Of a DNA stretch of 31,680 nt, positions 168 to 29,568 are shown piece after piece. Source of the DNA: an uncultured virus (IMG/VR IMGVR_UViG_3300031772_000008) (lineage: Duplodnaviria > Heunggongvirae > Uroviricota > Caudoviricetes). The notes under the pieces were generated by a model. The model had not been told where the DNA came from. It saw nothing but the letters and a program-made list of their open reading frames with translations, and searched no databases. Position 1 is the stretch's first letter. The number at the start of each line of letters is the position of its first letter. A program made the position numbers and the translations under genes. The stretch lies in the IMG/VR virus record IMGVR_UViG_3300031772_000008. The stretch is one strand, 5' to 3'.

Positions 168-491
168 TTCCCTTCTGAGTTGTTGTATGAACATCGCCAT
201 CGCACTTAACGCGAATGGAAGGCTGACAAAAAATGTCACTTTTTGGTTGCAAATCAAGAGGATAGTGAATAATATCCCGAACCATGTAGAAGAACATACT
301 AAACACAGTATCCCAGACGCGATAGAACCACGTTTATATACTGGGTCTGAGAACTGGTCGTACTTAACCCCCGCTTTCATTCGTATCCAGTCTAACATAC
401 CGAACGGCCCACTCTGTTCTGTATCCGCGAGCATATTCGATATTCTCCAAACAGCTAACGGCATTGTTAATATAGACAGGATGGTGTACAT
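165..491 (-). CDS. Small membrane protein, DUF1360-like
   Basis: LAVWRISNML..GPF..R and CLVCSSTW pattern with hydrophobic helices; TAATG overlap with the upstream gene. Confidence 0.6.
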   Translation of the reverse strand: MYTILSILTMPLAVWRISNMLADTEQSGPFGMLDWIRMKAGVKYDQFSDPVYKRGSIASGILCLVCSSTWFGILFTILLICNQKVTFFVSLPFALSAMAMFIQQLRRE

Positions 492-3400
492 TACATTCCA
501 GACGACTTCAATGCACTATCGTAAATAACCGCAGCCCTTTTTGCTCCTATGCCTTCAATAGATTGTAATCCTTCTACCCCTAATTCAACAATATCGTTCC
601 ATGTTTTGACGCCTTTTTTCAATAATATATCTGAAATATTATCTGTTATTCCTGGCAGACTTTGAAAGTCAGGCAGTTTCAATATATCTATCGATGGTGG
701 CGCAAGTCCTTCCGGTGCATTTGCGGGATTTGTTTTTACAAAATCCAATTCTTTCGGAGCATTAACTTCTACCGGAGGAGGAGTAGAGACTGGTTCGCTA
801 ACTGTCATGTTAGGTACTGGTTGAGTGAACGGAATGAACCATCCAGGATGAGTTGCGATATCAGACCTATGAACATAGAATCTCTCCATTCCTCCACCTG
901 CTCTATATCCGTAGTTTATCTTTGTAGACGCCCCAAATACATTGTGCATTCCACGATTTGGATTCTCGTAAGTGATTAATATCATATCATCGTCTACCAT
1001 TGATTTGGTTTCTTGCATGGTTCGTAAAGGTACAGTAATTTGTTTCTTATTTCCACCACAACTTCTGCATGGCATAGTTTCTACTCCTTCCAATTTCTTG
1101 GTAATATAATTCAATAGTTTTTGTGGCATTTGTATGCCTGTTTCTCTTCGACCTCCGGTATAAAACCTATACGCTACCATTGGTTTTGATAAACGTGCGA
1201 AACACTTTCCGTTACGTGCCATCCTGATCCAGTATTCCCAATCTTCCCACGATGGCATGTTCTCATCAAATCCACCTATCTCATCATGCCACGCTTTAGG
1301 GATTAATGTGGTAATAAGATTCCATATATATAAAGGATTAGCAGGTTGAATACAGGCTCTCTCGCAGTCGTAATCACCCGCATAAGATAAATGCATCGCG
1401 AGACCATCTTCTGGATTATAATCCAAAAGTCTATTACTATTCTTGAGTCTTTCAGCCTCTTCTTGAGTTATAAATGCCTTACTGACGTAATCTGTATAAA
1501 CTCCCATGCCTGTTTCGTTCCATCCAGCAACCATACTCTCAAGCGCATCGGGAACTAAAAAGTTATCATCAGCGTCTAGGAATGTTATCAGTCCAGCACG
1601 CGCTTTCTCAACCCCTCTGTTTCTCGCATAACCTGAGCCTTTCTTTCCAGATGTTTTGATTAATTTCACATAAGGATAGGCTGTTAATATGTCTGGAACA
1701 CCATCGTACGTCCATCCGCCCTCTTCACCTGTATCATCTACCAATATAACTTCCCACTTCCTTAGTGTTTGACTTTCAATACTATCTAAGGCATTAATAG
1801 TATGAGGCTTATGCCCCGGCCCTACAGGAATTATGACACTCACTATGGGGTCATCGTATTGTCTTACTGGATGAGTAAGTCTATTGTTCATGGGTGTTGC
1901 AACACATAGAAATGGGTGAAGCTGGTCTTTCGTGGAAGGATGTAACTCTCTCCAGTTTATTTCTCTATATGCTCTGTCTCCACTCACCCTACCGCTCTTG
2001 TATGAATAAATAAACAACGGCGCTTCTGTGACCCTTTTACCCTTAAAACCGTATAGTCCTGCTCTTAACCAGAACTCAGCATCTTCCGATCCGGCTCCTT
2101 TTGGAGCGTATCTACTGCGATATCCTCCCAATCTTTTCCACATTTCTTTCCTGAACATACTGCATGTCGGGATTTGATTAATCCCTCCGGGATAAACCAT
2201 GTTATCAAAATTGTACTCAGGAGGCCATTGGCTTACGGTTTGTTTCCCATCTGGTTCGACTGCCAAGAGTCCTGTATAAGCGATCCCTAGTAGAGGGTCT
2301 GCATCTAACGCTTCTTTACATGCTCTTACCCATTCAGTATCTATTCTATCGTCTGCGTCTAAACATACGATATAATCACCAGTCGCCATAGATATTCCTG
2401 TGTTTCTTGCTACGGCTACACCTGCATTATTCTGATAGTGGTATTTAACATCATACGCTGAGACTACTTGCTTAGTGTCATCTGTGCTTCCATCATCTAC
2501 TACGATAATTTCTTTTACTGGAACAGTTTGGGCTAAGACACTTTCGATTGCTCTACCCACTAAATCAGAGTAGTTGTAACACGGGATAATAACACTTACA
2601 TTATTATTTTTGGGTTGCATCGCCAATTTATAGACTTCGGATAGTTTCTCACATGCTTTATCCCATGTGAATTTTTTAGCCAATTCATTAGCGTTCTTTC
2701 CTAATGTATCTCTGTACTTCAGACAGTATCTTAATCCTTCTGCTAAGTTTTCTATATTCCCTGGTTGCGCTAAATACCCACTCACGCCGTGTTGTATGAA
2801 ATCGTTATTTCCTCCATAAGCATATCCCAATACAGGAGTTCCCGCTGCTAGAGATTCAAGAGTTAGTATTCCAGCAGTTTCTTTCACGGCAGATATTGTT
2901 ACTTCTGCTCTTTGTATTACTTCCTTCATCTTATCGTGGGATAGTAATCCAGTTATTCTTACATTGGACGGTGCATCCGATAATGCGAATGTGCATAAGA
3001 ATAACTTATCAGGGAAAAGTCTCGCTAATTCATTAACATACGCAGGATTGCATACATCTCTTATTCTGTTTTTTGCATACGCTAAGATATATCCATCATT
3101 CGGTAGAGTATGTTGCCATTCATCCCAATCCACTCCATGAGGAACGACGGTTGGATCAACTCTTACATCTCTTTGTATACTCTCAGCTACCCAATTACTT
3201 GGTACTGTTATTTGATCTGCGTGTCTTATTGAGTCAATTACTGCTAAATTTGCTTTCCATTCCTGAGCTAACATGGGTAAGTCCGCGGTCCAATAAACGC
3301 CATGAAGGTGAACAGCACAAGGTATACCACGTGGATATTTACTCCCCATTCCTGCATGAACAGCTAATACATCAAAATTGTCATCGCTTCTTGGAACAAA

Positions 3401-3511
3401 TTCAATTCCATATTTATTCCCATGCTCGAACCATTTCCTAACAACGGTGTGTATCCCGCTTTCTCCGTTCTTTAGATCGTCTACGTGAGGAACACTTCTG
3501 ACTTTAATCAC
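491..3511 (-). CDS. Multidomain glycosyltransferase: GT4 (GT-B) + GT2 + GT2 + C-terminal CxxC and helix-hairpin-helix region
   Basis: GT4 motif ETAGILTLESLAAGTPV; two GT2 starts VSVIIPCYN..VVDDGSTD..CLDADD and VSVIIPV..LVDD..FLDADD, each with an ED motif (SEDAEFW, WEDWEYW); C-terminal LPGIT and IEGIGAKRA HhH motifs. Confidence 0.9.
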   Translation of the reverse strand: MIKVRSVPHVDDLKNGESGIHTVVRKWFEHGNKYGIEFVPRSDDNFDVLAVHAGMGSKYPRGIPCAVHLHGVYWTADLPMLAQEWKANLAVIDSIRHADQITVPSNWVAESIQRDVRVDPTVVPHGVDWDEWQHTLPNDGYILAYAKNRIRDVCNPAYVNELARLFPDKLFLCTFALSDAPSNVRITGLLSHDKMKEVIQRAEVTISAVKETAGILTLESLAAGTPVLGYAYGGNNDFIQHGVSGYLAQPGNIENLAEGLRYCLKYRDTLGKNANELAKKFTWDKACEKLSEVYKLAMQPKNNNVSVIIPCYNYSDLVGRAIESVLAQTVPVKEIIVVDDGSTDDTKQVVSAYDVKYHYQNNAGVAVARNTGISMATGDYIVCLDADDRIDTEWVRACKEALDADPLLGIAYTGLLAVEPDGKQTVSQWPPEYNFDNMVYPGGINQIPTCSMFRKEMWKRLGGYRSRYAPKGAGSEDAEFWLRAGLYGFKGKRVTEAPLFIYSYKSGRVSGDRAYREINWRELHPSTKDQLHPFLCVATPMNNRLTHPVRQYDDPIVSVIIPVGPGHKPHTINALDSIESQTLRKWEVILVDDTGEEGGWTYDGVPDILTAYPYVKLIKTSGKKGSGYARNRGVEKARAGLITFLDADDNFLVPDALESMVAGWNETGMGVYTDYVSKAFITQEEAERLKNSNRLLDYNPEDGLAMHLSYAGDYDCERACIQPANPLYIWNLITTLIPKAWHDEIGGFDENMPSWEDWEYWIRMARNGKCFARLSKPMVAYRFYTGGRRETGIQMPQKLLNYITKKLEGVETMPCRSCGGNKKQITVPLRTMQETKSMVDDDMILITYENPNRGMHNVFGASTKINYGYRAGGGMERFYVHRSDIATHPGWFIPFTQPVPNMTVSEPVSTPPPVEVNAPKELDFVKTNPANAPEGLAPPSIDILKLPDFQSLPGITDNISDILLKKGVKTWNDIVELGVEGLQSIEGIGAKRAAVIYDSALKSSGM

Positions 3512-14831: not shown

Positions 14832-15725
14832 CTACATACGAGAGAATGTCATCTGTTCCGGTGTAATATCAGTTGCCTTTTGACTGCCTCGATATTCGTC
14901 AAACGGCATAAATCCAAGCATATTCAGTCTTGCATAATATCGCATATAATCAGCCAATTCTTTGTATGTCCAGTTTGGTGATATATATTCATTCTTTCGT
15001 TTTGCATGTAACGGTTGATACCGCATTGGATTAGGTAATGCACCCATCCCCCTAACAGTATCTAATCTATATCGTGCATCATCAGGAGTATCGTTATATC
15101 CAATTAGTACATAGACCCTGATCTGTTGTGTTTTTATTCCATGCTTTATAAGTAATTCAAATGCCTTTCGATATTTATATTCAGTTTTTGTATCATCCCA
15201 TGCCAATCTAATAATAGTATCTTTAGGTAATTCCTCAAATCTAATAGCATGATGTATAGATAGCAACCGTGCGTCTAGTCCCTGATTGAAGTCAATCCCC
15301 GATATATTATTCTCAAGTAGTCGGTCAATAACTTTATCAAAGTGTGAATCACTACATGCCAATAGATTGTTATCGCATATTATAGGATTTACTTTCCAGT
15401 CGTCAAGCTCTACCAACTTACCCTCAATTTTAGGAACGGCACAGAATGAACAATTACGGATACATCCCCGACTGGTAAATGTCGCATCGGGATTATGTCT
15501 TTCTAGCGCGTCCGGTAAACCCGTAAGGTCAAACGCCGTAAACATTGATGGATTATTGATAATCGCTGGACCTCCAACTTTAACATAAAAACCAGATGAT
15601 TGAAGAAAGAGTGCCCGCATGTATGCTTTATCTAGTTGCCATGAAAACACACAGGACACATACGCTGTATCTTCCTCAATCCAATCTATCAGCCCACCAG
15701 ACCAACTCACTTTTTCTTTTCCCAT
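14832..15725 (-). CDS. Radical SAM enzyme
   Basis: TSRGCIRNCSFC (CxxxCxxC), DNNLL, DFNQGLDARL, YVLIGY, PMRY motifs; VGGP in the N-terminal region. Confidence 0.9.
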   Translation of the reverse strand: MGKEKVSWSGGLIDWIEEDTAYVSCVFSWQLDKAYMRALFLQSSGFYVKVGGPAIINNPSMFTAFDLTGLPDALERHNPDATFTSRGCIRNCSFCAVPKIEGKLVELDDWKVNPIICDNNLLACSDSHFDKVIDRLLENNISGIDFNQGLDARLLSIHHAIRFEELPKDTIIRLAWDDTKTEYKYRKAFELLIKHGIKTQQIRVYVLIGYNDTPDDARYRLDTVRGMGALPNPMRYQPLHAKRKNEYISPNWTYKELADYMRYYARLNMLGFMPFDEYRGSQKATDITPEQMTFSRM

Positions 15726-20306: not shown

Positions 20307-21343
20307 TTCATCTTCTCCATACTTTTCCAGTCTGTATCATCATGTAACAACCAGGGATAACCTTCCCTGACTATCACAGAGCCATGCTTATGAGCACGTT
20401 TGGTATTATGCCTTTGTCCACAATACGCAAGCCTATACTCGTCTACCGTATGCCCTGCGTGAATAGCATAAAAATCACCGCTTATATCCCATGTGAAATC
20501 CAATAAATGACTATGCCCCATGATTACAGAACAATGATACTTAGCGGAAAGATTCTGCGCTGTCCCCTCCGCTGCACCTTTGGGATGTTCTATCATAAAT
20601 CTTTTTTCACCGGACATAAGTATTGAATAATAAAAGGGTGCTATCCTCCATGATTGGACATCAAGCAATCTAGTTATCTCAGTTGGAAACATAGGACTAT
20701 GCAATTGTCTCATCAATCTAGATTCGTGATTCCCCATTATACAATCAACATTATCAAAACATTCTGTCAATGATTTTACTGCCTTACGTGCAACCTTTAA
20801 TTCCTCACTTACATTAGGGTCTCCATCTTCTGGCTTGACTCCTATCTTATCTAATAAAGCGAATCCCTGTTCTTGCTGTCTTGATCCTAGTGTCTTCACG
20901 AAATTAATGAAATCATATTCTTGTTTTTCGTCTAACCCCCCATGTCCGTTAGGAATTTGCCAATTAGGAGACCAATCGCTTAGACTATCGAAATGCAGTA
21001 AGTCTCCAGCTATAATACATTGTTTTATCCCCCACGTTTGAGATAAATCCAGGACTCTATTGATAAAATCCGCATGATGAAAAGGAAACTCTGGGTCAGG
21101 TAATACTAACGCATCGCCTTCCATTTCAAGAGGTGTATCGAAACGAGGATACGGTGAAGATTGTATTCTTTTCTCTAAACGCATACCATGTACCCGCCAA
21201 TGACTTCTACACGCCTCCTCCTTTTTGCCCATTTCTTTCCCAATAATACTCCATTTATAGTTAGCGTCTTGGTAATGAGAATAAAGTTTGCATAACTTTT
21301 CCTCTTCTTCTGGACTCCATTCTGTAACTTTGGCTCTACTCAT
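20303..21343 (-). CDS. Metallophosphoesterase (calcineurin-like) with N-terminal Myb/HTH-like domain
   Basis: WSPEEEEKL..WSIIGKEMGK..CRSHW Myb-like start; LPDPEFP, AGDLLHFD, GNHE, MGHSH motifs. Confidence 0.8.
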   Translation of the reverse strand: MSRAKVTEWSPEEEEKLCKLYSHYQDANYKWSIIGKEMGKKEEACRSHWRVHGMRLEKRIQSSPYPRFDTPLEMEGDALVLPDPEFPFHHADFINRVLDLSQTWGIKQCIIAGDLLHFDSLSDWSPNWQIPNGHGGLDEKQEYDFINFVKTLGSRQQEQGFALLDKIGVKPEDGDPNVSEELKVARKAVKSLTECFDNVDCIMGNHESRLMRQLHSPMFPTEITRLLDVQSWRIAPFYYSILMSGEKRFMIEHPKGAAEGTAQNLSAKYHCSVIMGHSHLLDFTWDISGDFYAIHAGHTVDEYRLAYCGQRHNTKRAHKHGSVIVREGYPWLLHDDTDWKSMEKMK

Positions 21344-22026
21344 TCTTCCTCCATAACAGCGTCTATTATTTCTGTTTCCTTAATAGCACCGCTGTCTTTA
21401 CCAGCTTGAGCAATTGCTTCTAATAGAACTTGTACGGTCTTTTCTTTTACCGCATCTATCGTACTTTCATCCATACCAGCGTTTATAGCTTCTGTCCTCC
21501 AATCTATTTGAATCTTCTTGGCTTCGAACAATCCGAATATATCACAGCGCATTTTTATTGCACGTTCGATCATTTCAAGGTAACGTATATCCCCAACTGT
21601 CGCTTCAATAATCTTGTGCTTTTTCTTTCTTTGAATATCTGCTATCTTATCCATTGAAAAAGGTACTTGGTCATCTGTAACTTCATACTCTATTCTTACG
21701 TGTTTGTCTTTAGATTTCTCCCAAGCGTTCCATGCTTCTCTTTCTACTTCATCCAGTCTTGCAAGTTCTTTCGATTTCGCAGCGTTAAAATCAACAAGCG
21801 TGGAATTTAACCACGCCTGTCTTATGGATTGTAAATCTGTATTAATTACTTTACTAGATAGTGGTCTGTCAGGATACATAGAATTAAGAGAGAGTCTCAT
21901 CTCTTGCTGACTCTTTCCTCTTACATACATACGAGCTATGATAACTAAGTCCCGCTCGCGTTCTTCATCTGTCCTAAATAATGCAATACTATCTGTCGTG
22001 TCCAGAGGTATTAGTTTGTCATTCAT
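21340..22026 (-). CDS. terS: Terminase small subunit (probable)
   Basis: HTH-like IARMYVRGKSQQEM..INTDL, ELARLDEVEREAWNAW and GDIRYL..RCDIFGL pattern of a TerS-like family; heads the run of genes leading to terL. Confidence 0.6.
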   Translation of the reverse strand: MNDKLIPLDTTDSIALFRTDEERERDLVIIARMYVRGKSQQEMRLSLNSMYPDRPLSSKVINTDLQSIRQAWLNSTLVDFNAAKSKELARLDEVEREAWNAWEKSKDKHVRIEYEVTDDQVPFSMDKIADIQRKKKHKIIEATVGDIRYLEMIERAIKMRCDIFGLFEAKKIQIDWRTEAINAGMDESTIDAVKEKTVQVLLEAIAQAGKDSGAIKETEIIDAVMEEE

Positions 22027-22792: not shown

Positions 22793-22946
22793 TCTTTTTG
22801 ATAACTGGATAGTTGTATGGGATTACTTCAAGAATAAATACAACCAGTAGGAATATAAATATACTGTACCAGTATTCCTTATAGAATATAAACAACCATA
22901 CGGAAGCAATAAACGACAAACGAGCCATTACAGAAACAATTATCAA
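22782..22946 (-). CDS. Small membrane protein (54 aa, TTG start), not in the ORF track
   Basis: GAGGTG SD, TTGA overlap; reads MIIVSVMARLSFIASVWLFIFYKEYWYSIFIFLLVVFILEVIPYNYPVIKKNVR and exactly fills the gap between neighbours. Confidence 0.6.
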   Translation of the reverse strand: MIIVSVMARLSFIASVWLFIFYKEYWYSIFIFLLVVFILEVIPYNYPVIKKNVR

Positions 22947-24277: not shown

Positions 24278-24856
24278 CTAGGCGACTTTCTCCAATTTGG
24301 TCACTTTATCAGGCTTCCCGTCAGCCTTCCTGATAAAAGTGGCTTTGTAACCCTTGAGGTCGTACTCTTTGCCCTCAAGTTTCCCAACTGGGATGCCGGC
24401 CTGTACTAATACTTCATCCCAGACGGTCACTCCGTATTTCATCCACATTCCACCCTTCACTCTGTAATACTTCTTCCCATTTGTTAAAGTTACTAACAGT
24501 TTCTCGGTATCGTAGAAGTCACTTTGGGTTGAAACAACACCCTCTGATGCTGGAACATTAGCCATCTCAGTTACAATAGCATCAACTAGAGTTGGCACAG
24601 GAAGAGTAGCCGCAGGTGTTTCGTATGCATTCTTTCCTACCTGTTTCGCTAAACCACCCAAAGAATGAATGTGAGCCGTTGCTTCTAATGCAGATTTGAT
24701 ATGGGCTTGGACTTGTTCTAAACTCAGTATCCCTCTGATCGTAGTCTGAAGATTAAAGACTTGAGATTGAGTTTCATAGGTCCAATAAAAATTGGTCGAT
24801 GCCTGTTCAGGGTTATCGATTGTTACGGACTTTACCGTGCTGGTCTTATCGTCCAT
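24278..24856 (-). CDS. Hypothetical protein (192 aa) with a beta-rich basic C-terminal domain
   Basis: AGGAGG SD before ATG at 24856; the track's TTG start at 24910 is actually the -35 box. Confidence 0.75.
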   Translation of the reverse strand: MDDKTSTVKSVTIDNPEQASTNFYWTYETQSQVFNLQTTIRGILSLEQVQAHIKSALEATAHIHSLGGLAKQVGKNAYETPAATLPVPTLVDAIVTEMANVPASEGVVSTQSDFYDTEKLLVTLTNGKKYYRVKGGMWMKYGVTVWDEVLVQAGIPVGKLEGKEYDLKGYKATFIRKADGKPDKVTKLEKVA

Positions 24857-24882
24857 GATTACACCTCCTAGTGTATGGTGCA

Positions 24883-24910
24883 ATTGTACCACAATAGCAA
24901 TAGATGTCAA
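24883..24910 (-). promoter_or_regulatory. Sigma70-type promoter TTGACA-N16-TACAAT with extended TG
   Basis: TGTCAA 24905-24910 and ATTGTA 24883-24888 on the plus strand; leftward promoter at the strand switch. Confidence 0.8.
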
Positions 24911-24930
24911 GTATTCTAATGTTCCTACAC

Positions 24931-24959
24931 TTCCAGTTATTTAATCTATGTGATAGAAT
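24931..24959 (+). promoter_or_regulatory. Rightward promoter TTCCAG-N17-TAGAAT with extended TG
   Basis: TGA-TAGAAT 24951-24959 upstream of the AAGGAG SD and ATG 24980. Confidence 0.55.
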
Positions 24960-24979
24960 TACATTCCCCAAGGAGACAT

Positions 24980-25207
24980 ATGGACCCACAGTTAATCCAA
25001 TCCAGGACTGTTATAATCGCTGACCTGAACAAACTGAACGTAGAGTTATCTATTAAGGCAGCGATTGATTATTACAGGACTCTGTATGGCGAGCCTCGAA
25101 GAGTGTGGATAAATCCAAAAGATTGTGATGATAAAATACAAGAGGTAGATGGGTTCAAAATAGAGAGGCGCGGTGGTTGCTGTCGAGGCAAAGTTATGAT
25201 TCTATGA
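24980..25207 (+). CDS. Hypothetical protein
   Basis: AAGGAG SD before ATG 24980; ATGA overlap with the next gene. Confidence 0.7.
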   Translation: MDPQLIQSRTVIIADLNKLNVELSIKAAIDYYRTLYGEPRRVWINPKDCDDKIQEVDGFKIERRGGCCRGKVMIL

Positions 25208-26202
25208 GAGAAGATACGCTTCCTTCTGAGTTCGCTGAATTGTCTGGTAGAGTAAACTTTGTCCACCGCAAAGGTCAGTACGAATATTCTTCAAGTTGCC
25301 CTAGGTGTGGGGGTGGGATACATTCTGATGGAGAATTTTCTGACAGGTTCGTTATGTTTTTACCAGGTAGAAAAGGGATGGACTTTGCCTTTGGGTTCTG
25401 TAGAAAATGCGGGACGAAATGGTGGCCTGGGCAGAGAGATGGACGAGAGGTAGACCCTGCTACACTCGCTTTATTAGAAAGACAAGCCAAAGAAGCAGAG
25501 GAAAGACACAAGGAAGAACGCAGAGTTAAATTAGCACAGTTTAGTACAACTGAATTGTGGAATGAGCTACACGATAGACTAGGGATAGATGAAAGGAAGT
25601 GGTGGACTGACAATGGCATCCCCTCAGAGTGGCAAGATTACCTTAAGCTTGGTTACACACCAGATAAAATTTACCAAAGTATTAATGGGCTACTTCACAG
25701 CCCAGCTTACACCATCCCATACTTTATTTACGGCTTTGTATTTCGGACTATACAATATAGGTTATGTGATCCTGATAATCCCAAGGATAGGTACAGGTTT
25801 GAGTCTGACCTTGGAACTTCATACTATATGACAACACCGTCATTAAAGATAGGCGACCAAGTTATTATTTGCGAGGGGGCGAAGAAAGGAATGGTCACTA
25901 AGATATGGGGGGAAAATAAGACTACTGTATTAGCAGTACCCAGTAAAACAGACTGGAGAAGTTGTGGAATATTAGAAGCAGTAAAGGATTGTGGAAGAGT
26001 GTATATTTTATTCGACCCAGACTGTTATGAACAGCCACCTGATTCAAATAGCTGGACACCTCAACCAATATTATTTGCTAAAGAAATAGGAAAGAACGCA
26101 AGGGTGATGGAGTGCCCAGTAAAGGTAGATGATGCGTTTATATATTATGGAATGGATCAGAATGAATGGAACGCTTTGAAGAAACAAGCAGTGAAGTTAT
26201 GA
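25204..26202 (+). CDS. DNA primase-like protein (zinc finger + TOPRIM)
   Basis: CPRCGG..DRF..FCRKC zinc finger; LGY, TIPY, IQYR, RYR; IICEGAKK and ILFDPD TOPRIM motifs. Confidence 0.75.
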   Translation: MREDTLPSEFAELSGRVNFVHRKGQYEYSSSCPRCGGGIHSDGEFSDRFVMFLPGRKGMDFAFGFCRKCGTKWWPGQRDGREVDPATLALLERQAKEAEERHKEERRVKLAQFSTTELWNELHDRLGIDERKWWTDNGIPSEWQDYLKLGYTPDKIYQSINGLLHSPAYTIPYFIYGFVFRTIQYRLCDPDNPKDRYRFESDLGTSYYMTTPSLKIGDQVIICEGAKKGMVTKIWGENKTTVLAVPSKTDWRSCGILEAVKDCGRVYILFDPDCYEQPPDSNSWTPQPILFAKEIGKNARVMECPVKVDDAFIYYGMDQNEWNALKKQAVKL

Positions 26203-26381
26203 GTGGAATTTTTGTTACTGCGATCTATAATACCAGGCACGAGTATTGGTGTTTAGCAAGAGGAACAGAAACGTTTTACGATGAACATAGATTCTTGAGG
26301 ACTTGGGAAACCAAGCAAGAAGCAATTGATTGGCTTAAAAATAATCACCCAGAATTTACATTGGTTGAAACTGATGATTGA
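26199..26381 (+). CDS. Hypothetical protein
   Basis: ATGA overlap at 26199; WETKQEAIDWL motif. Confidence 0.6.
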   Translation: MSGIFVTAIYNTRHEYWCLARGTETFYDEHRFLRTWETKQEAIDWLKNNHPEFTLVETDD

Positions 26382-26823
26382 TTACATAAAACCGATTTAC
26401 GGTAAACATCCTAGTAAAAAAATGATGTTCAAAGCAGAATGTGGAGGCTGCGGAAAACTATTAAGACGAAACGCGAGGAATAAAATAGGTTATATATGTT
26501 CGGAGTGCAGTCCCAGAATAAGACATGATAACGATTCAAGTGTTTGTTATGATTGTCCATTTGTAATAGATTGTACTGCTAGAGTTCAGTTAGGGTTATG
26601 GCTTCGTTGTGAAACCCCAGATATTGCAGACTTAGAAAGGCTTAATTTTGCAGGAGGATTAGACGATGAAGGAGTTCGACGAGAGTTGGAAAGTACGATG
26701 GTCGGGAGAGGGGATCGGAAGGTTCTGGAAAAGGCAGTTAGCCAAAGCGCGTCGAAGATATATCAAAGCTGTGTTGAGGGGGGAGAAAGGAAAATACCCA
26801 TTCAGATACGAGACAGAATGTAA
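26374..26823 (+). CDS. Cys-rich putative zinc-binding protein
   Basis: CGGC, CSEC, CYDC..C..C motifs; its C-terminal third overlaps the next gene. Confidence 0.6.
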   Translation: MIDYIKPIYGKHPSKKMMFKAECGGCGKLLRRNARNKIGYICSECSPRIRHDNDSSVCYDCPFVIDCTARVQLGLWLRCETPDIADLERLNFAGGLDDEGVRRELESTMVGRGDRKVLEKAVSQSASKIYQSCVEGGERKIPIQIRDRM

Positions 26824-26839
26824 CTGGAAAAATCACTAG
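26666..26839 (+). CDS. Small basic protein (57 aa), not in the ORF track
   Basis: AGGAGG SD 8 nt before ATG 26666; MKEFDESWKVRWSGEGIGRFWKRQLAKARRRYIKAVLRGEKGKYPFRYETECNWKNH; its stop overlaps the SD of the next gene. Confidence 0.7.
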   Translation: MKEFDESWKVRWSGEGIGRFWKRQLAKARRRYIKAVLRGEKGKYPFRYETECNWKNH

Positions 26840-26847
26840 GAGATGTT

Positions 26848-27033
26848 ATGGAAGATATTAAGTTTTCTTATTGCGTAAATTGCTACGAGCGTCAGGATTT
26901 TATTCTTGTGAACGGTGTGTGGATTTGTAAAACTTGCAATAAACCAATGCAAAGAGCCACGGAAAGAATAGATAAATCATTGACTAATACAAGCAGTTCA
27001 GGTACAATTGTAACAGGAGGCAACTATGGCTAA
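26848..27033 (+). CDS. Small zinc-ribbon protein
   Basis: AGGAG SD; CVNC..WICKTC. Confidence 0.65.
   Translation: MEDIKFSYCVNCYERQDFILVNGVWICKTCNKPMQRATERIDKSLTNTSSSGTIVTGGNYG
26980..27008 (+). promoter_or_regulatory. Sigma70-type promoter TTGACT-N17-TACAAT
   Basis: TTGACT 26980-26985, TACAAT 27003-27008. Confidence 0.75.
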
Positions 27034-27064
27034 AAAAAAGAAGCCATGCAAGACAAAGAAATGA
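27026..27064 (+). CDS. 12-aa lysine-rich micropeptide MAKKKKPCKTKK
   Basis: AGGAGG-5nt-ATG directly after the promoter; TGA at 27062-27064. Confidence 0.6.
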   Translation: MAKKKKPCKTKK

Positions 27065-27068
27065 TCTA

Positions 27069-27198
27069 TGGGCGGCGGTGTGGTTGGGAACACACAGGCA
27101 GAACCGTAATGTATGAACAATACTAATCGTCGCATTGTCTAAATAAAGGGAACACTTCTGGTGAAAAGCCCACATCAGGTTCGAATCCTGACCGCCCA
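27069..27198 (+). ncRNA. tRNA-like RNA (130 nt) with acceptor stem, D-arm and T-arm but an ~80-nt middle region
   Basis: TGGGCGG/CCGCCCA 7-bp stem; GTGTG-GTTGGGAA-CACAC D-like arm after a 2-nt linker; TCAGG-TTCGAAT-CCTGA T-arm adjoining the acceptor strand; no canonical anticodon arm. Confidence 0.75.
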
Positions 27199-27204
27199 TT
27201 TTAT

Positions 27205-27451
27205 GCGCTCTATTTGTTTGGCGCTAGGCGAAGTAATCCTATATTACAACCAGACAAAGGTAAGGGACTAGCAACCGAGCGCGATGGGACTGCTTCGCTA
27301 TTACATAGGGATGTAACACGCATAGGAATAGCCCAACTGAAAGCACGAATGTGCCGTAGGTTGCGTGGCAAGGTGTCCTGCCAAAATTAAAACTATCGGG
27401 GTATAGGAGCAGGTGAAATGCCCCGAGCCTTGCCAAAGACTAACTTACCTG
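27205..27451 (+). ncRNA. Candidate structured RNA (~250 nt) with pseudoknots
   Basis: GCGCTC/GAGCGC, TTTGTTTGG/CCAGACAAA, GCGAAGTAATCCTAT/ATGGGACTGCTTCGC, TTACAT/ATGTAA, ACGCA/TGCGT, TGGCAAGG/CCTTGCCA, TCGGGGTAT/ATGCCCCGA, CAGGTGA/TTACCTG. Confidence 0.65.
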
Positions 27452-27459
27452 AAAAAGAT

Positions 27460-27476
27460 TTGACAAAAAATGTCAA
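27460..27476. promoter_or_regulatory. Palindrome TTGACA-N5-TGTCAA (operator-like; each arm is a -35 consensus)
   Basis: Perfect inverted repeat 30 nt upstream of ATG 27506. Confidence 0.55.
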
Positions 27477-27505
27477 TTTATGGTTACAAATAAAAAAGGA
27501 GACCA

Positions 27506-27688
27506 ATGAGTAAACTAAGTATAGCCGCATTTTTATCTTTATTTCCAAACCTCAGTAAATCTTCAAAACATGATTGGGTGTTCAGTCATAAAAATATAAA
27601 ACCGAGTGGAATTACCAAACACAAACCAAAGCCGGGGCGCAATCATCCTGTTAAGGGATACGATCAAGAAAATCATAAATGGATTTAA
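27506..27688 (+). CDS. Small basic hypothetical protein
   Basis: AAGGAG SD; 60-aa Lys/His-rich ORF. Confidence 0.6.
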   Translation: MSKLSIAAFLSLFPNLSKSSKHDWVFSHKNIKPSGITKHKPKPGRNHPVKGYDQENHKWI

Positions 27689-27700
27689 AAAAGGAGATAA

Positions 27701-28354
27701 ATGGAAACAAATGAAAAGTTAGATCAGTTAGCAGAATTTCAGTCTCAGCGCGACTCGATTGAAATCGAAAAACGTGCGTTACTTGACGAGGTTAAAATAC
27801 CATCCGAAGTCGAAGAAATTGTTGCTGAGGGCATGAAGAAAATGAGTGAGGTGGAAGAAACATTTTATCCAACCTTAGAATTACTCAAAGAAAAGACCGA
27901 AAAGAAACTGGCATTGATTGTCGTCCCTGACGAAATAAAAACTGCGCTTGCAGAAATTGATAGACAACGCGCCGAGATTATAGAGCATCAAACAAAAAAT
28001 GAGGCAGAAATAGCACAATGTATCCGTGCGGTCAAAGCTGAAATACAAGCCAATGTAGAGGCGAAAACAAAAGATATTTATGCTGCTATTGCCCAGCGTA
28101 AGGCTGAGATCGAAGTTGAGTTTTCCGGTAAGGCTGAAGCAGTTGATGAGAACATTAAGAAACTGACCGAGGAAATTAAATCTGACGTATTAACTATGGG
28201 TGTTTCAGTAAAAGGGAAATACTACCAGGGTATTTATGTAAAAGGACGCGTGACTTGGGATACTAGTAAAATGGATGGATATGCAGTTGGTCATCCAGAG
28301 GTTCTATTCATGCGCAAAGAAGGCGATCCATCTTGCACCATCAGGAAAATATAA
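27701..28354 (+). CDS. Coiled-coil protein, Mu Gam / Siphovirus gp157-like
   Basis: AAGGAG SD; long coiled coil then KGRVTWDTSKMDGYAVGHPEVLFMRKEGDPSCTIR beta-rich tail. Confidence 0.5.
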   Translation: METNEKLDQLAEFQSQRDSIEIEKRALLDEVKIPSEVEEIVAEGMKKMSEVEETFYPTLELLKEKTEKKLALIVVPDEIKTALAEIDRQRAEIIEHQTKNEAEIAQCIRAVKAEIQANVEAKTKDIYAAIAQRKAEIEVEFSGKAEAVDENIKKLTEEIKSDVLTMGVSVKGKYYQGIYVKGRVTWDTSKMDGYAVGHPEVLFMRKEGDPSCTIRKI

Positions 28355-28365
28355 AAAGGAGATAA

Positions 28366-28458
28366 ATGATATTCATTACAGTATCTACGATCAGCGTTGT
28401 TTTAGTTCTTTTTGTGGGGCTGTGCTGTTTACTGGCTTTACTTGCACCCAGTCAGTAA
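28366..28458 (+). CDS. 30-aa hydrophobic single-helix peptide, not in the ORF track
   Basis: AAGGAG-4nt-ATG; MIFITVSTISVVLVLFVGLCCLLALLAPSQ. Confidence 0.65.
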   Translation: MIFITVSTISVVLVLFVGLCCLLALLAPSQ

Positions 28459-28469
28459 TGTGATATAAT
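28442..28469 (+). promoter_or_regulatory. Sigma70-type promoter TTGCAC-N16-TATAAT with extended TG
   Basis: TTGCAC 28442-28447, TGA-TATAAT 28461-28469; predicted start near 28476. Confidence 0.75.
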
Positions 28470-28477
28470 ATGGATGA

Positions 28478-28940
28478 TTCTAGGTACAGATAGTGTTTTT
28501 ATTTACAGCTATAACAGCCTCGGCTGATAGCAAGTGCGCCCGAACACTGTCTCTACCTAGAAGTAAAAACATGTTGGGCGCACTTATATTATCAATTCCT
28601 TGCTCATAGGCGGAGCGGATAGGCGAGGATACATACGAACTGAGAGGAAACTCTCTAGGCAGAAACTGCTCCAACTGTTACTGTCGTAGACAACGACTGG
28701 TTTAACCTCAAGACATTTTATATGCGCCTCGGACAAAGCAGGGAACAGCGAGGTTCGTCCCTAATAGGGATTAGCGAAAAGATGGTTGAACCGACTCCCA
28801 CTCTGAAAGGAGTGAGAAACTCAAGTTCTTTCTTGCTTGGTTTATTTTTTTTTTGAACTTGTTTTTCGAAGGAGTCGCCAGGGCTGCCCTGGGAGAACTG
28901 TTTAAGTTCACCAGAGAAAGGTTAACGAATACGGTTAACA
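28478..28940 (+). ncRNA. Large highly structured RNA or leader (~460 nt) upstream of the replication genes
   Basis: More than a dozen helices, including TTCTAGGTA/TACCTAGAA, AGATAGTGTTT/GAACACTGTCT, AAGTGCGCCC/GGGCGCACTT, GAGAG-GAAA-CTCTC, CACTCT-GAAA-GGAGTG, CGACTCC/GGAGTCG, CAAGTTC/GAACTTG and CCAGGG/CCCTGG; no plus-strand ORF in the track. Confidence 0.7.
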
Positions 28941-29010
28941 AACAATATAGTATACTTAATGCTACTAGATAGCAAGGGCAGTTCTATTCCCTAATACGGA
29001 AGGAGAATGT

Positions 29011-29568
29011 ATGACACAAACTATGACACGAGGAATCCGATTGGCGATTACTGAAACGCTTGCCAAGTATGGAATTGATAATGTAGTCCTGGATATGGAA
29101 CTCACAAAAGTTATAACTGATATTATCCAAACGAAACAACCCAAACGAACTTTAGAACAATTGAATAAGGAAACAGAGGATGCGTTTTTTGCATCTTTAG
29201 CGAGTAAATCATCTGGATACGAACAATTTCCAGAGGATATAAGACCTTATGCAGAAAAGTTCTGTACGTTATATAAGATAAAACCACCTATTAGACCTCA
29301 CAAACAAAGAGAACGTAGTGAGTTTTCATTCTGGATAACATCTTTGCGTGAATTAATGGATGCCTGTGGTGAGTATGGTAGTGATCTATTAATTGAAATG
29401 CGCAAGGAATACGAGGGAGAGATGCAGGGAGGTCTTGCACCTTTTCGTGTGACAAGTCCTGCTAGTTTAGTGAAGTCTGCGCGTGGTAAAGCTGGTATGA
29501 AACGTCAGGGAATAAGTGGAACTATAAAGCAAGGTAAGCCTAAGTATCATTCTCTTCTGGATGTATGA
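29011..29568 (+). CDS. Hypothetical protein, possibly replication initiator or helicase loader
   Basis: AAGGAG SD; ATGA-coupled to the DnaB-like gene; function inferred from position only. Confidence 0.5.
   Translation: MTQTMTRGIRLAITETLAKYGIDNVVLDMELTKVITDIIQTKQPKRTLEQLNKETEDAFFASLASKSSGYEQFPEDIRPYAEKFCTLYKIKPPIRPHKQRERSEFSFWITSLRELMDACGEYGSDLLIEMRKEYEGEMQGGLAPFRVTSPASLVKSARGKAGMKRQGISGTIKQGKPKYHSLLDV

Follow-up and report, generated by a model that had tools for sequence, protein, structure and literature searches.

Candidate structured modules in a hyperplastic intergenic region between a tRNA-like slot and a PeSL-like cassette of an uncultured tailed phage

What kind of element occupies positions 27205-27451 of IMG/VR record IMGVR_UViG_3300031772_000008? 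The window, i.e. the whole stretch of DNA analysed here (31,680 nt), is a tailed-phage contig: Pfam/PHROG matches place a large terminase subunit and a DnaB-type helicase on it, besides further phage families, and the sequencing runs that contain its DNA are sediment metagenomes. The first-pass annotation, made from the letters of the window, described these 247 nt as one RNA of about 250 nt with two pseudoknots, placed directly behind a tRNA mimic, and proposed a candidate new ribozyme, switch or scaffold. A new double-pseudoknot ribozyme or switch of this size behind a tRNA mimic would be notable; comparison with relatives removes that reading.

The gap and its flanking elements

In the window, minus-strand genes extend up to about position 24910 and the replication module follows on the plus strand. 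A gap of 441 nt stretches from the stop codon of a micro-ORF (27026-27064) to an ATG at 27506, and it contains, in this order, a tRNA-like element (27068-27200), the 247 nt in question and a palindromic cassette (27458-27505). The conserved block (27201-27336) lies between a primase-like ORF and the DnaB-type helicase gene (Pfam/PHROG). The region is framed by the following features:

26980-27008, plus strand: promoter-like site TTGACT-17-TACAAT (10/12 matches in a sigma-70 scan), within the end of a 61-aa ORF
27026-27064, plus strand: lysine-rich micro-ORF of 12 codons, MAKKKKPCKTKK, with the SD sequence GGAGG and a start codon that runs into the stop of the 61-aa ORF (ATGGCTAA)
27068-27200, plus strand: tRNA-like element with acceptor stem, D arm, T arm (TTCGAAT) and an anticodon arm carrying an insert of 52 nt (ARAGORN, relaxed scores)
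27458-27505, plus strand: palindromic gene-start cassette, TTGACA-5-TGTCAA, GGTTACAAA, A-rich tract, SD and ATG, forming the right boundary of the region
27506-27688, plus strand: 60-aa ORF without Pfam/PHROG match, present in the window and absent from the related loci L004 and L005

The promoter-like site is the best sigma-70-like site near 27205-27451. Its hexamers and 17-nt spacing are the same in L005, with a different spacer sequence, and it is possibly the start of a transcript running over the micro-ORF, the tRNA-like element and the block. A counterpart of the micro-ORF, MVKKKKKPCKTKK, occupies the same place in L005 (321-362), the micro-ORFs having 12-13 codons. The micro-ORF is conserved while the sequence right after its stop codon differs between relatives. 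The 61-aa ORF (26848-27033) is zinc-ribbon-like and its only match is to Gin (PF10764), at 16.9 bits against a cut-off of 27.

The tRNA-like element at 27068-27200 was detected by ARAGORN only at lowered thresholds. The default ARAGORN run gave no call and Rfam gave no match at E ≤ 10 over 26900-27600, while a tmRNA was not found by ARAGORN even with relaxed scores. The fold of the element has a z-score of -2.07. The corresponding slot of L005 (363-434) is filled by an unrelated 72-nt element with an acceptor-like stem and a T-arm-like hairpin, which also has neither a default ARAGORN call nor an Rfam tRNA match. At least four different fillers (window, L005, X11 and X14, the last two being contigs from further runs) follow the micro-ORF. 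This slot could be a fast-evolving decoy or a processing signal.

Relatives and predicted structure of the two modules

Relatives were obtained by a protein-anchored scan of metagenome contigs, which gave 12 loci; the block was reached and carried only by L004 and L005. BLAST of 26840-27700 against loci L001-L014 showed the gap to be common to these two only. They are 99.4% identical overall and identical to each other in this stretch. Their alignment to the window covers 27201-27336 at 90.5% over 137 columns (BLAST), and the next aligned base is 27458, which belongs to the cassette. The locus L003 is identical to the window but begins 49 nt before the gene.

Contigs from four further runs (X11, X14, X18 and X21) were mapped on 26300-28400. 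Over 27201-27336 the X11 contig has 7 differing letters and two gaps (27234 and 27241), and beyond 27336 its loose end leads straight into the cassette. The X21 contig covers 27298-27335 without differing letters or gaps and is then joined to the cassette and to 28353 onward. Upstream, the contigs part from the window at 27062 (X14, X18) or at 27078 (X11) and continue with unlike sequence.

The segment 27337-27457 is absent from all three of the other haplotypes reaching this point (L004/L005, X11 and X21). Judged by these alignments, the proposed 3' domain is an indel of 121 nt that only the window's lineage shows. Its lack in three haplotypes out of three argues against one RNA of about 250 nt, since only 27201-27336 is common to the relatives. 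On the same comparison the 247 nt are two adjacent, separately inherited non-coding modules, and the single-RNA reading is largely refuted by the indel. The modules and their predicted parts are as follows:

27201-27336, plus strand: module 1, a non-coding block of 136 nt corresponding to the 5' domain of the first-pass annotation (BLAST to L004/L005; X11 and X21 contigs)
27205-27210/27277-27282, plus strand: helix P1 of the block (6 bp; consensus fold)
27213-27221/27250-27258, plus strand: helix P2 of the block (9 bp, one G.U; consensus fold)
27222-27249, plus strand: hypervariable tip of P2, carrying the loop strand 27228-27242 of the proposed pseudoknot 1 (L005 alignment, X11 contig)
27233-27237/27243-27247, plus strand: local hairpin within the tip (consensus fold)
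27285-27334, plus strand: 3' hairpin of the block (consensus fold)
27337-27457, plus strand: module 2, the lineage-specific insertion of 121 nt corresponding to the proposed 3' domain
27343-27346/27351-27354, plus strand: small hairpin of the insertion (fold)
27356-27363/27441-27448, 27366-27374/27427-27435 and 27396-27404/27418-27426, plus strand: long three-helix hairpin of the insertion (fold)

The pairings of the first-pass annotation can be read in the window. P1 and P2 are found in the 5' domain, and helices of 8 bp (27366-27373/27428-27435) and 9 bp with one G.U (27396-27404/27418-27426) are found in the 3' domain; ViennaRNA recovers these nested helices. The complementarity named as pseudoknot 1, between 27228-27242 and 27284-27298, is present at 14 of 15 positions, and the loop CAGGTGA (27410-27416) can form 7 bp, the proposed pseudoknot 2, with the tail TTACCTG (27445-27451). 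When the region is dinucleotide-shuffled, 15 of 300 shuffles contain a pair of complementary 15-mers that match at 14 of 15 positions. The 7-bp loop-tail match, which was chosen post hoc, is met in 94 of 5000 tail shuffles, and this pairing competes with the MFE helix 27356-27363/27441-27448.

The whole 247 nt fold at -72.5 kcal/mol versus -68.5 ± 4.6 kcal/mol in shuffles (z -0.87; 29 of 200 shuffles as stable), with a z-score of -0.18 on the minus strand. For the 5' part alone the z-scores are -0.60 (plus strand) and -0.90 (minus strand). Folded alone, the segment 27337-27460 has a plus-strand z-score of -2.91 (2 of 200 shuffles do as well) and a minus-strand z-score of -1.67. In these folding models, better-than-chance folding is clear only for the 3' part on its own.

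Within the block, the tip differs from L005 at 11 of its 28 positions while keeping the same length, and both X11 gaps (27234 and 27241) fall inside it. Relative to L005, the 108 nt outside the tip differ by a single substitution (G to A at 27253) and a 1-nt indel. Through this substitution a G.U pair of P2 becomes A-U, which fits a plus-strand RNA, and both P1 and P2 are retained in the consensus fold of the window and L005. In the tip, a hairpin of 5 bp with a 5-nt loop forms at the same position in both sequences, with two double and one single compensatory changes; covariation in the block rests on these 3 pairs and on two full-length block sequences (window and L005). The 3' hairpin is invariant between the two and is uninformative on pairing.

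Pseudoknot 1 competes with the compensated local hairpin of the tip. Furthermore, L005 keeps 11 of its 15 pairs, with no run longer than 3, the pairing being broken every fourth position. Of the proposed 5' domain, the nested helices have held, being kept in L005 with a change that suits the plus strand, and pseudoknot 1 has not. The comparison favours a plus-strand stem with a free apex and disfavours pseudoknot 1, with support that is thin because only two full sequences are available. An L005 MFE structure pairing both ends of the block was dropped, as the window is unable to extend that helix. By-eye pairings in a single sequence need relatives before being called pseudoknots.

Coding capacity and known RNA families

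A 1-nt indel after 27263 distinguishes the window from L004/L005. It lies within identical sequence and shifts every frame; by this comparison the stretch is non-coding. The window and L005 have different sets of ORFs, and no Pfam/PHROG match at E ≤ 0.01 was found for the plus-strand ORFs 27214-27390, 27506-27688 and 26166-26381 or for the minus-strand ORF 27239-27436. The last of these had been named in the first-pass annotation as a possible conserved protein that would speak against an RNA. It spans the indel junction, and in L005 its 5' half is absent and its frame is shifted. A phmmer search of 1.84 billion representatives returned a single match, a repetitive 821-aa protein with 8 matching stretches (E 8.4e-5). 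By these results the ORF is not a conserved protein, and it has no small-protein relatives in this search.

Rfam cmscan gave no matches for the whole window at gathering scores and none for 26900-27600 at E ≤ 10, so the check suggested in the first-pass annotation connects the region to no known family. A snoZ188 match in L005 300-640 (14.3 bits versus a gathering score of 50, E 3.2) was taken as chance. Rfam includes HDV-type models. The HDV-like architecture is a nested double pseudoknot of P1, P1.1, P2, P3 and P4 that starts at the cleavage site, for theta ribozymes immediately behind the tRNA. A permissive descriptor of this topology found 13 plus-strand solutions versus a mean of 22.9 in 100 shuffles, and 93 of the 100 had at least one, so that the descriptor is non-discriminating. 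Among the 10 of the 13 solutions listed by start, the first begins at 27210, and the solutions starting at 27210 and 27214 draw on the dispensable 3' domain. By eye, 27250-27258 has its sole complement on the upstream side, the wrong topology for an HDV-like fold. For a riboswitch, no Rfam aptamer match was obtained, and the conserved block is found before the cassette, not within a 5' UTR. Nothing in these results points to a ribozyme, switch or scaffold.

GOLLD and ROOL are phage-associated RNAs of several hundred nucleotides that occur near tRNAs and are represented in Rfam. The present region resembles them as a non-coding RNA candidate near a tRNA-like element in a phage, but it gives no match at E ≤ 10 and its conserved unit is 136 nt. 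Phage T7 has intercistronic hairpins processed by RNase III, and phage T4 has stable RNAs co-transcribed with tRNAs. T7 and the window have in common long imperfect hairpins that lie on the coding strand between genes, and the release of small RNAs from tRNA-containing transcripts would be the point of likeness to T4. Processing in the window would be by analogy. An intrinsic terminator scan of 24500-29500 gave 4 sites, none of them in 27000-27520, and neither hairpin is followed by a U tract.

Searches for homologs were conducted in several collections. Blastn of 26900-27700 against GenBank phages gave no match. In IMG/VR, the 217-aa protein encoded downstream of the cassette returned 2 loci (65% and 50% identity), and the RNA is missing upstream of both; the 165-aa and 341-aa proteins returned no loci, and three exact block patterns gave 0 each. 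The micro-ORF pattern returned one IMG/VR locus, which by reading is an unrelated coding region, and a 13-nt match in L011 was judged chance. No homolog outside this phage group was found in IMG/VR or, by the cassette pattern, in GTDB genomes.

The theta-ribozyme paper ties HDV-like ribozymes to gut-phage tRNAs and postulates cutting of the tRNA 3' trailer (Kienbeck et al. 2024, PMC10879173). Here too the region immediately follows a tRNA-like element of a tailed phage, and position is the only resemblance. Unlike theta ribozymes, it has no Rfam ribozyme match, and among the solutions listed no nested double pseudoknot begins at the 3' end of the tRNA-like element. The habitats also differ, being sediment here and gut for the theta ribozymes.

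The cassette and possible roles of the modules

AAGGAG and ATG come after the cassette palindrome (27460-27476). L005 has the same arrangement, and the cassette is 93% identical to L005 571-616 (BLAST). A second, degenerate copy is located at 223-254 (90% over 31 nt), so two copies were seen in 31.7 kb; the cassette has the pattern TTGACAAnAAATGTCAA...GGTTACAAA...AAGGAG. The perfect TTGACA of the cassette has no acceptable -10 box at 16-18 nt, and the site is absent from the sigma-70 promoter list. The loose ends of the X11 contigs place the cassette in front of different genes, before 27687 and before 28353, and the indel breakpoints of L005 (lack of the 60-aa ORF), X11 and X21 coincide with it.

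A scan for the cassette pattern gave 9 IMG/VR loci and 37 GTDB genome loci from many phyla. BLAST of the window against these 46 loci gave matches of 19-43 nt and none outside the cassette. The longest match (43 nt at 84%) falls in a coding region of a Microcoleus MAG contig (L036, 1185-1233); it was judged chance because the locus had been pre-selected on a 19-nt pattern. This match translates to KLTKNVNFWL, which is like LTKNVNLWL of a possible 31-codon ORF of the window (27418-27513).

In T4-type phages, promoter-early stem-loops (PeSL) combine a promoter, a stem-loop and an SD sequence and mediate modular shuffling (Arbiol et al. 2010, PMC2839356); PeSL also appear in Comeau et al. (2014, PMC4122927). 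Judged against the former paper, the similarities are a short repeated intergenic cassette with a TTGACA box, an overlapping stem-loop, an SD and a start codon, a setting with many small ORFs whose function is unknown, and insertions, deletions and replacements between close relatives that break at the cassette. The differences from PeSL as described there are that the modules here lie upstream of the cassette and, at 136 and 121 nt, are far longer than the PeSL stem-loop. In addition, the cassette of the window has a poor -10 box with no promoter call and is present in only two copies, and no evidence here makes the window phage T4-like. The PeSL-like layout of stem-loop, SD and start, the repetition and the indel breakpoints all agree, which would make the cassette PeSL-like.

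Transcript-end or processing hairpins in a hyperplastic intergenic region, between a swappable tRNA-like slot and the PeSL-like cassette, are tentatively preferred as the best explanation, at somewhat under an even chance. The gap would separate a replication-gene transcription unit (the primase-like gene, small ORFs, the micro-ORF and the tRNA-like element) from the cassette. On the plus strand, module 1 would form the P1/P2 stem with a freely varying apical hairpin and then a second long hairpin, and module 2 would add an extended hairpin of 121 nt gained only in the window's lineage. Both would be transcribed as the structured tail of the upstream unit, where the stem-loops could attenuate read-through into the next cassette, be processed by RNases and shield the 3' end. 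Serving as homology arms for module shuffling might be a further role of the conserved flanks. A role in the transcript tail is suggested because of position: in the more distant loci L001 and L007-L009 a G+C-rich stem-loop, with a promoter or SD after it, stands before the same downstream gene, and the PeSL of T4-type phages bring a stem-loop together with a promoter and an SD and drive modular shuffling. Against this explanation stand the lack of a terminator call and of a U tract in the region scanned, the block z-score of -0.60, the cassette not being scored as a promoter, covariation limited to 3 pairs, and the chance that mosaic ancestry accounts for the near-identity of the block.

The alternatives, ranked by weight, are a neutral spacer, a small RNA released from a tRNA leader, a DNA-level element, small ORFs and the originally proposed RNA. 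The first of these is unlikely. The block would be recombination debris that is alike through recent ancestry or gene conversion, the insertion would be a random gain, and neither would have a function. In L004/L005, where the 60-aa ORF is missing, the cassette abuts the 217-aa gene, and this neighbouring gene is mosaic too, with 108-nt stretches at 98% against 83.8% identity overall; the near-identity of the block may have arisen from the same mosaic ancestry. The block also folds no better than shuffles on either strand, gave no homolog outside the phage group in the IMG/VR scans or the cassette scan of GTDB genomes, and is followed by a 121-nt module that three other haplotypes out of three dispense with. 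However, the variation sits exactly at the apex of P2 (11/28 positions, versus one substitution in the 108-nt flanks), the independent X11 haplotype carries its two gaps in the same tip, the replaced tip still forms a 5-bp hairpin in place, and the insertion folds at z -2.91.

A stand-alone small RNA is improbable. It supposes that the tRNA-like element recruits RNase P and tRNA 3'-end nucleases and so frees an RNA of about 136 nt, in which the hypervariable apical hairpin serves as a specificity loop, e.g. of an antisense or immunity RNA. Among phage regulatory RNAs, c4 of P1/P7 and CI of P4 owe their maturation to RNase P. In the window as in L005, the block is immediately preceded by a tRNA-like minihelix (acceptor stem and T arm), whose sequence is unrelated between the two, and the block has the form of a conserved frame with a hypervariable tip. 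A duplex scan, however, gave no co-varying target: the best partner of the window tip outside the block was at 22811 (-22.7 kcal/mol), as good as the one inside the block itself (-22.6 kcal/mol), and the best partners of the L005 tip reached -17 to -20.9 kcal/mol. The 3' end has no terminator, and neither tRNA-like element is called by default ARAGORN or by Rfam. The fuller version, in which 27201-27336 is a new phage small RNA freed from a swappable tRNA-like leader and its hypervariable hairpin is a strain-specific recognition loop, would be a long shot. If it were true, recognition might concern immunity or exclusion between co-circulating phage strains, and the tRNA-like slot would be under the same arms-race pressure.

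The block could also act as DNA, as a protein-binding or replication site by the primase and helicase genes or mainly as a homology arm for filler exchange, which is distinctly improbable. Outside the tip its primary sequence is nearly invariant and not structure-compensated, it is located between the primase-like ORF and the DnaB-type helicase gene, and the filler between the conserved flanks differs in the window, L005, X11 and X14. Yet the block contains no iterons or repeats, only short chance matches, and its composition has no AT-rich unwinding stretch; the change from G.U to A-U and the G.U-containing helices better suit a plus-strand RNA.

Encoded small proteins are very improbable. 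One candidate is the plus-strand ORF 27214-27390, and another is the following:

27418-27513, plus strand: possible 31-codon ORF, with the SD sequence AGGAG (27405-27409) in the 13-nt apical loop of the insertion hairpin and the ATG in its stem

The AGGAG stands 8 nt before the ATG at 27418, and the frame reads through the cassette to a stop that overlaps the start of the next ORF; the tip has equal length in the window and L005. However, the 31-codon frame meets a stop in the L005 cassette and so is not conserved, the 1-nt indel changes the frame of 27214-27390, family matches are lacking in Pfam/PHROG, and the minus-strand ORF is without small-protein relatives. Scarcely credible is one RNA of about 250 nt with two pseudoknots acting as a new ribozyme, riboswitch or scaffold: all its pairings exist, at the shuffle frequencies given above (15/300 and 94/5000), and its 3' domain folds well, but that domain is missing in three haplotypes out of three, pseudoknot 1 is lost in L005, the whole-region z-score is -0.87, Rfam is silent even at E ≤ 10, and the HDV-like solutions number 13 versus a mean of 22.9.

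What the comparison leaves is an intergenic region built of exchangeable pieces, namely a tRNA-like slot with unrelated fillers in close relatives, a conserved hairpin block with a hypervariable tip, an optional hairpin and a repeated cassette. The cassette is the place where genes come and go, and the interest of the locus lies mainly in phage genome plasticity.

Several further observations were made in the window. Variant contigs put the cassette directly 5' of 28353, and the following 28355-29010 (about 650 nt) is without an ORF of at least 90 aa, holding only short ones, e.g. a 30-aa hydrophobic ORF at 28366-28458. A 228-aa protein (21340-22026, minus strand) matches PHROG 645, annotated 'Rnase E' (E 4.6e-7); if this annotation is real, the phage would bring its own RNA-processing enzyme, which would bear on the intergenic hairpins. 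The structural or late region encodes a 1006-aa protein (491-3511, minus strand) with glycosyltransferase (GtrB-like) matches and a radical-SAM protein (14832-15725, minus strand) that matches PHROG 9298 (E 1.3e-38).
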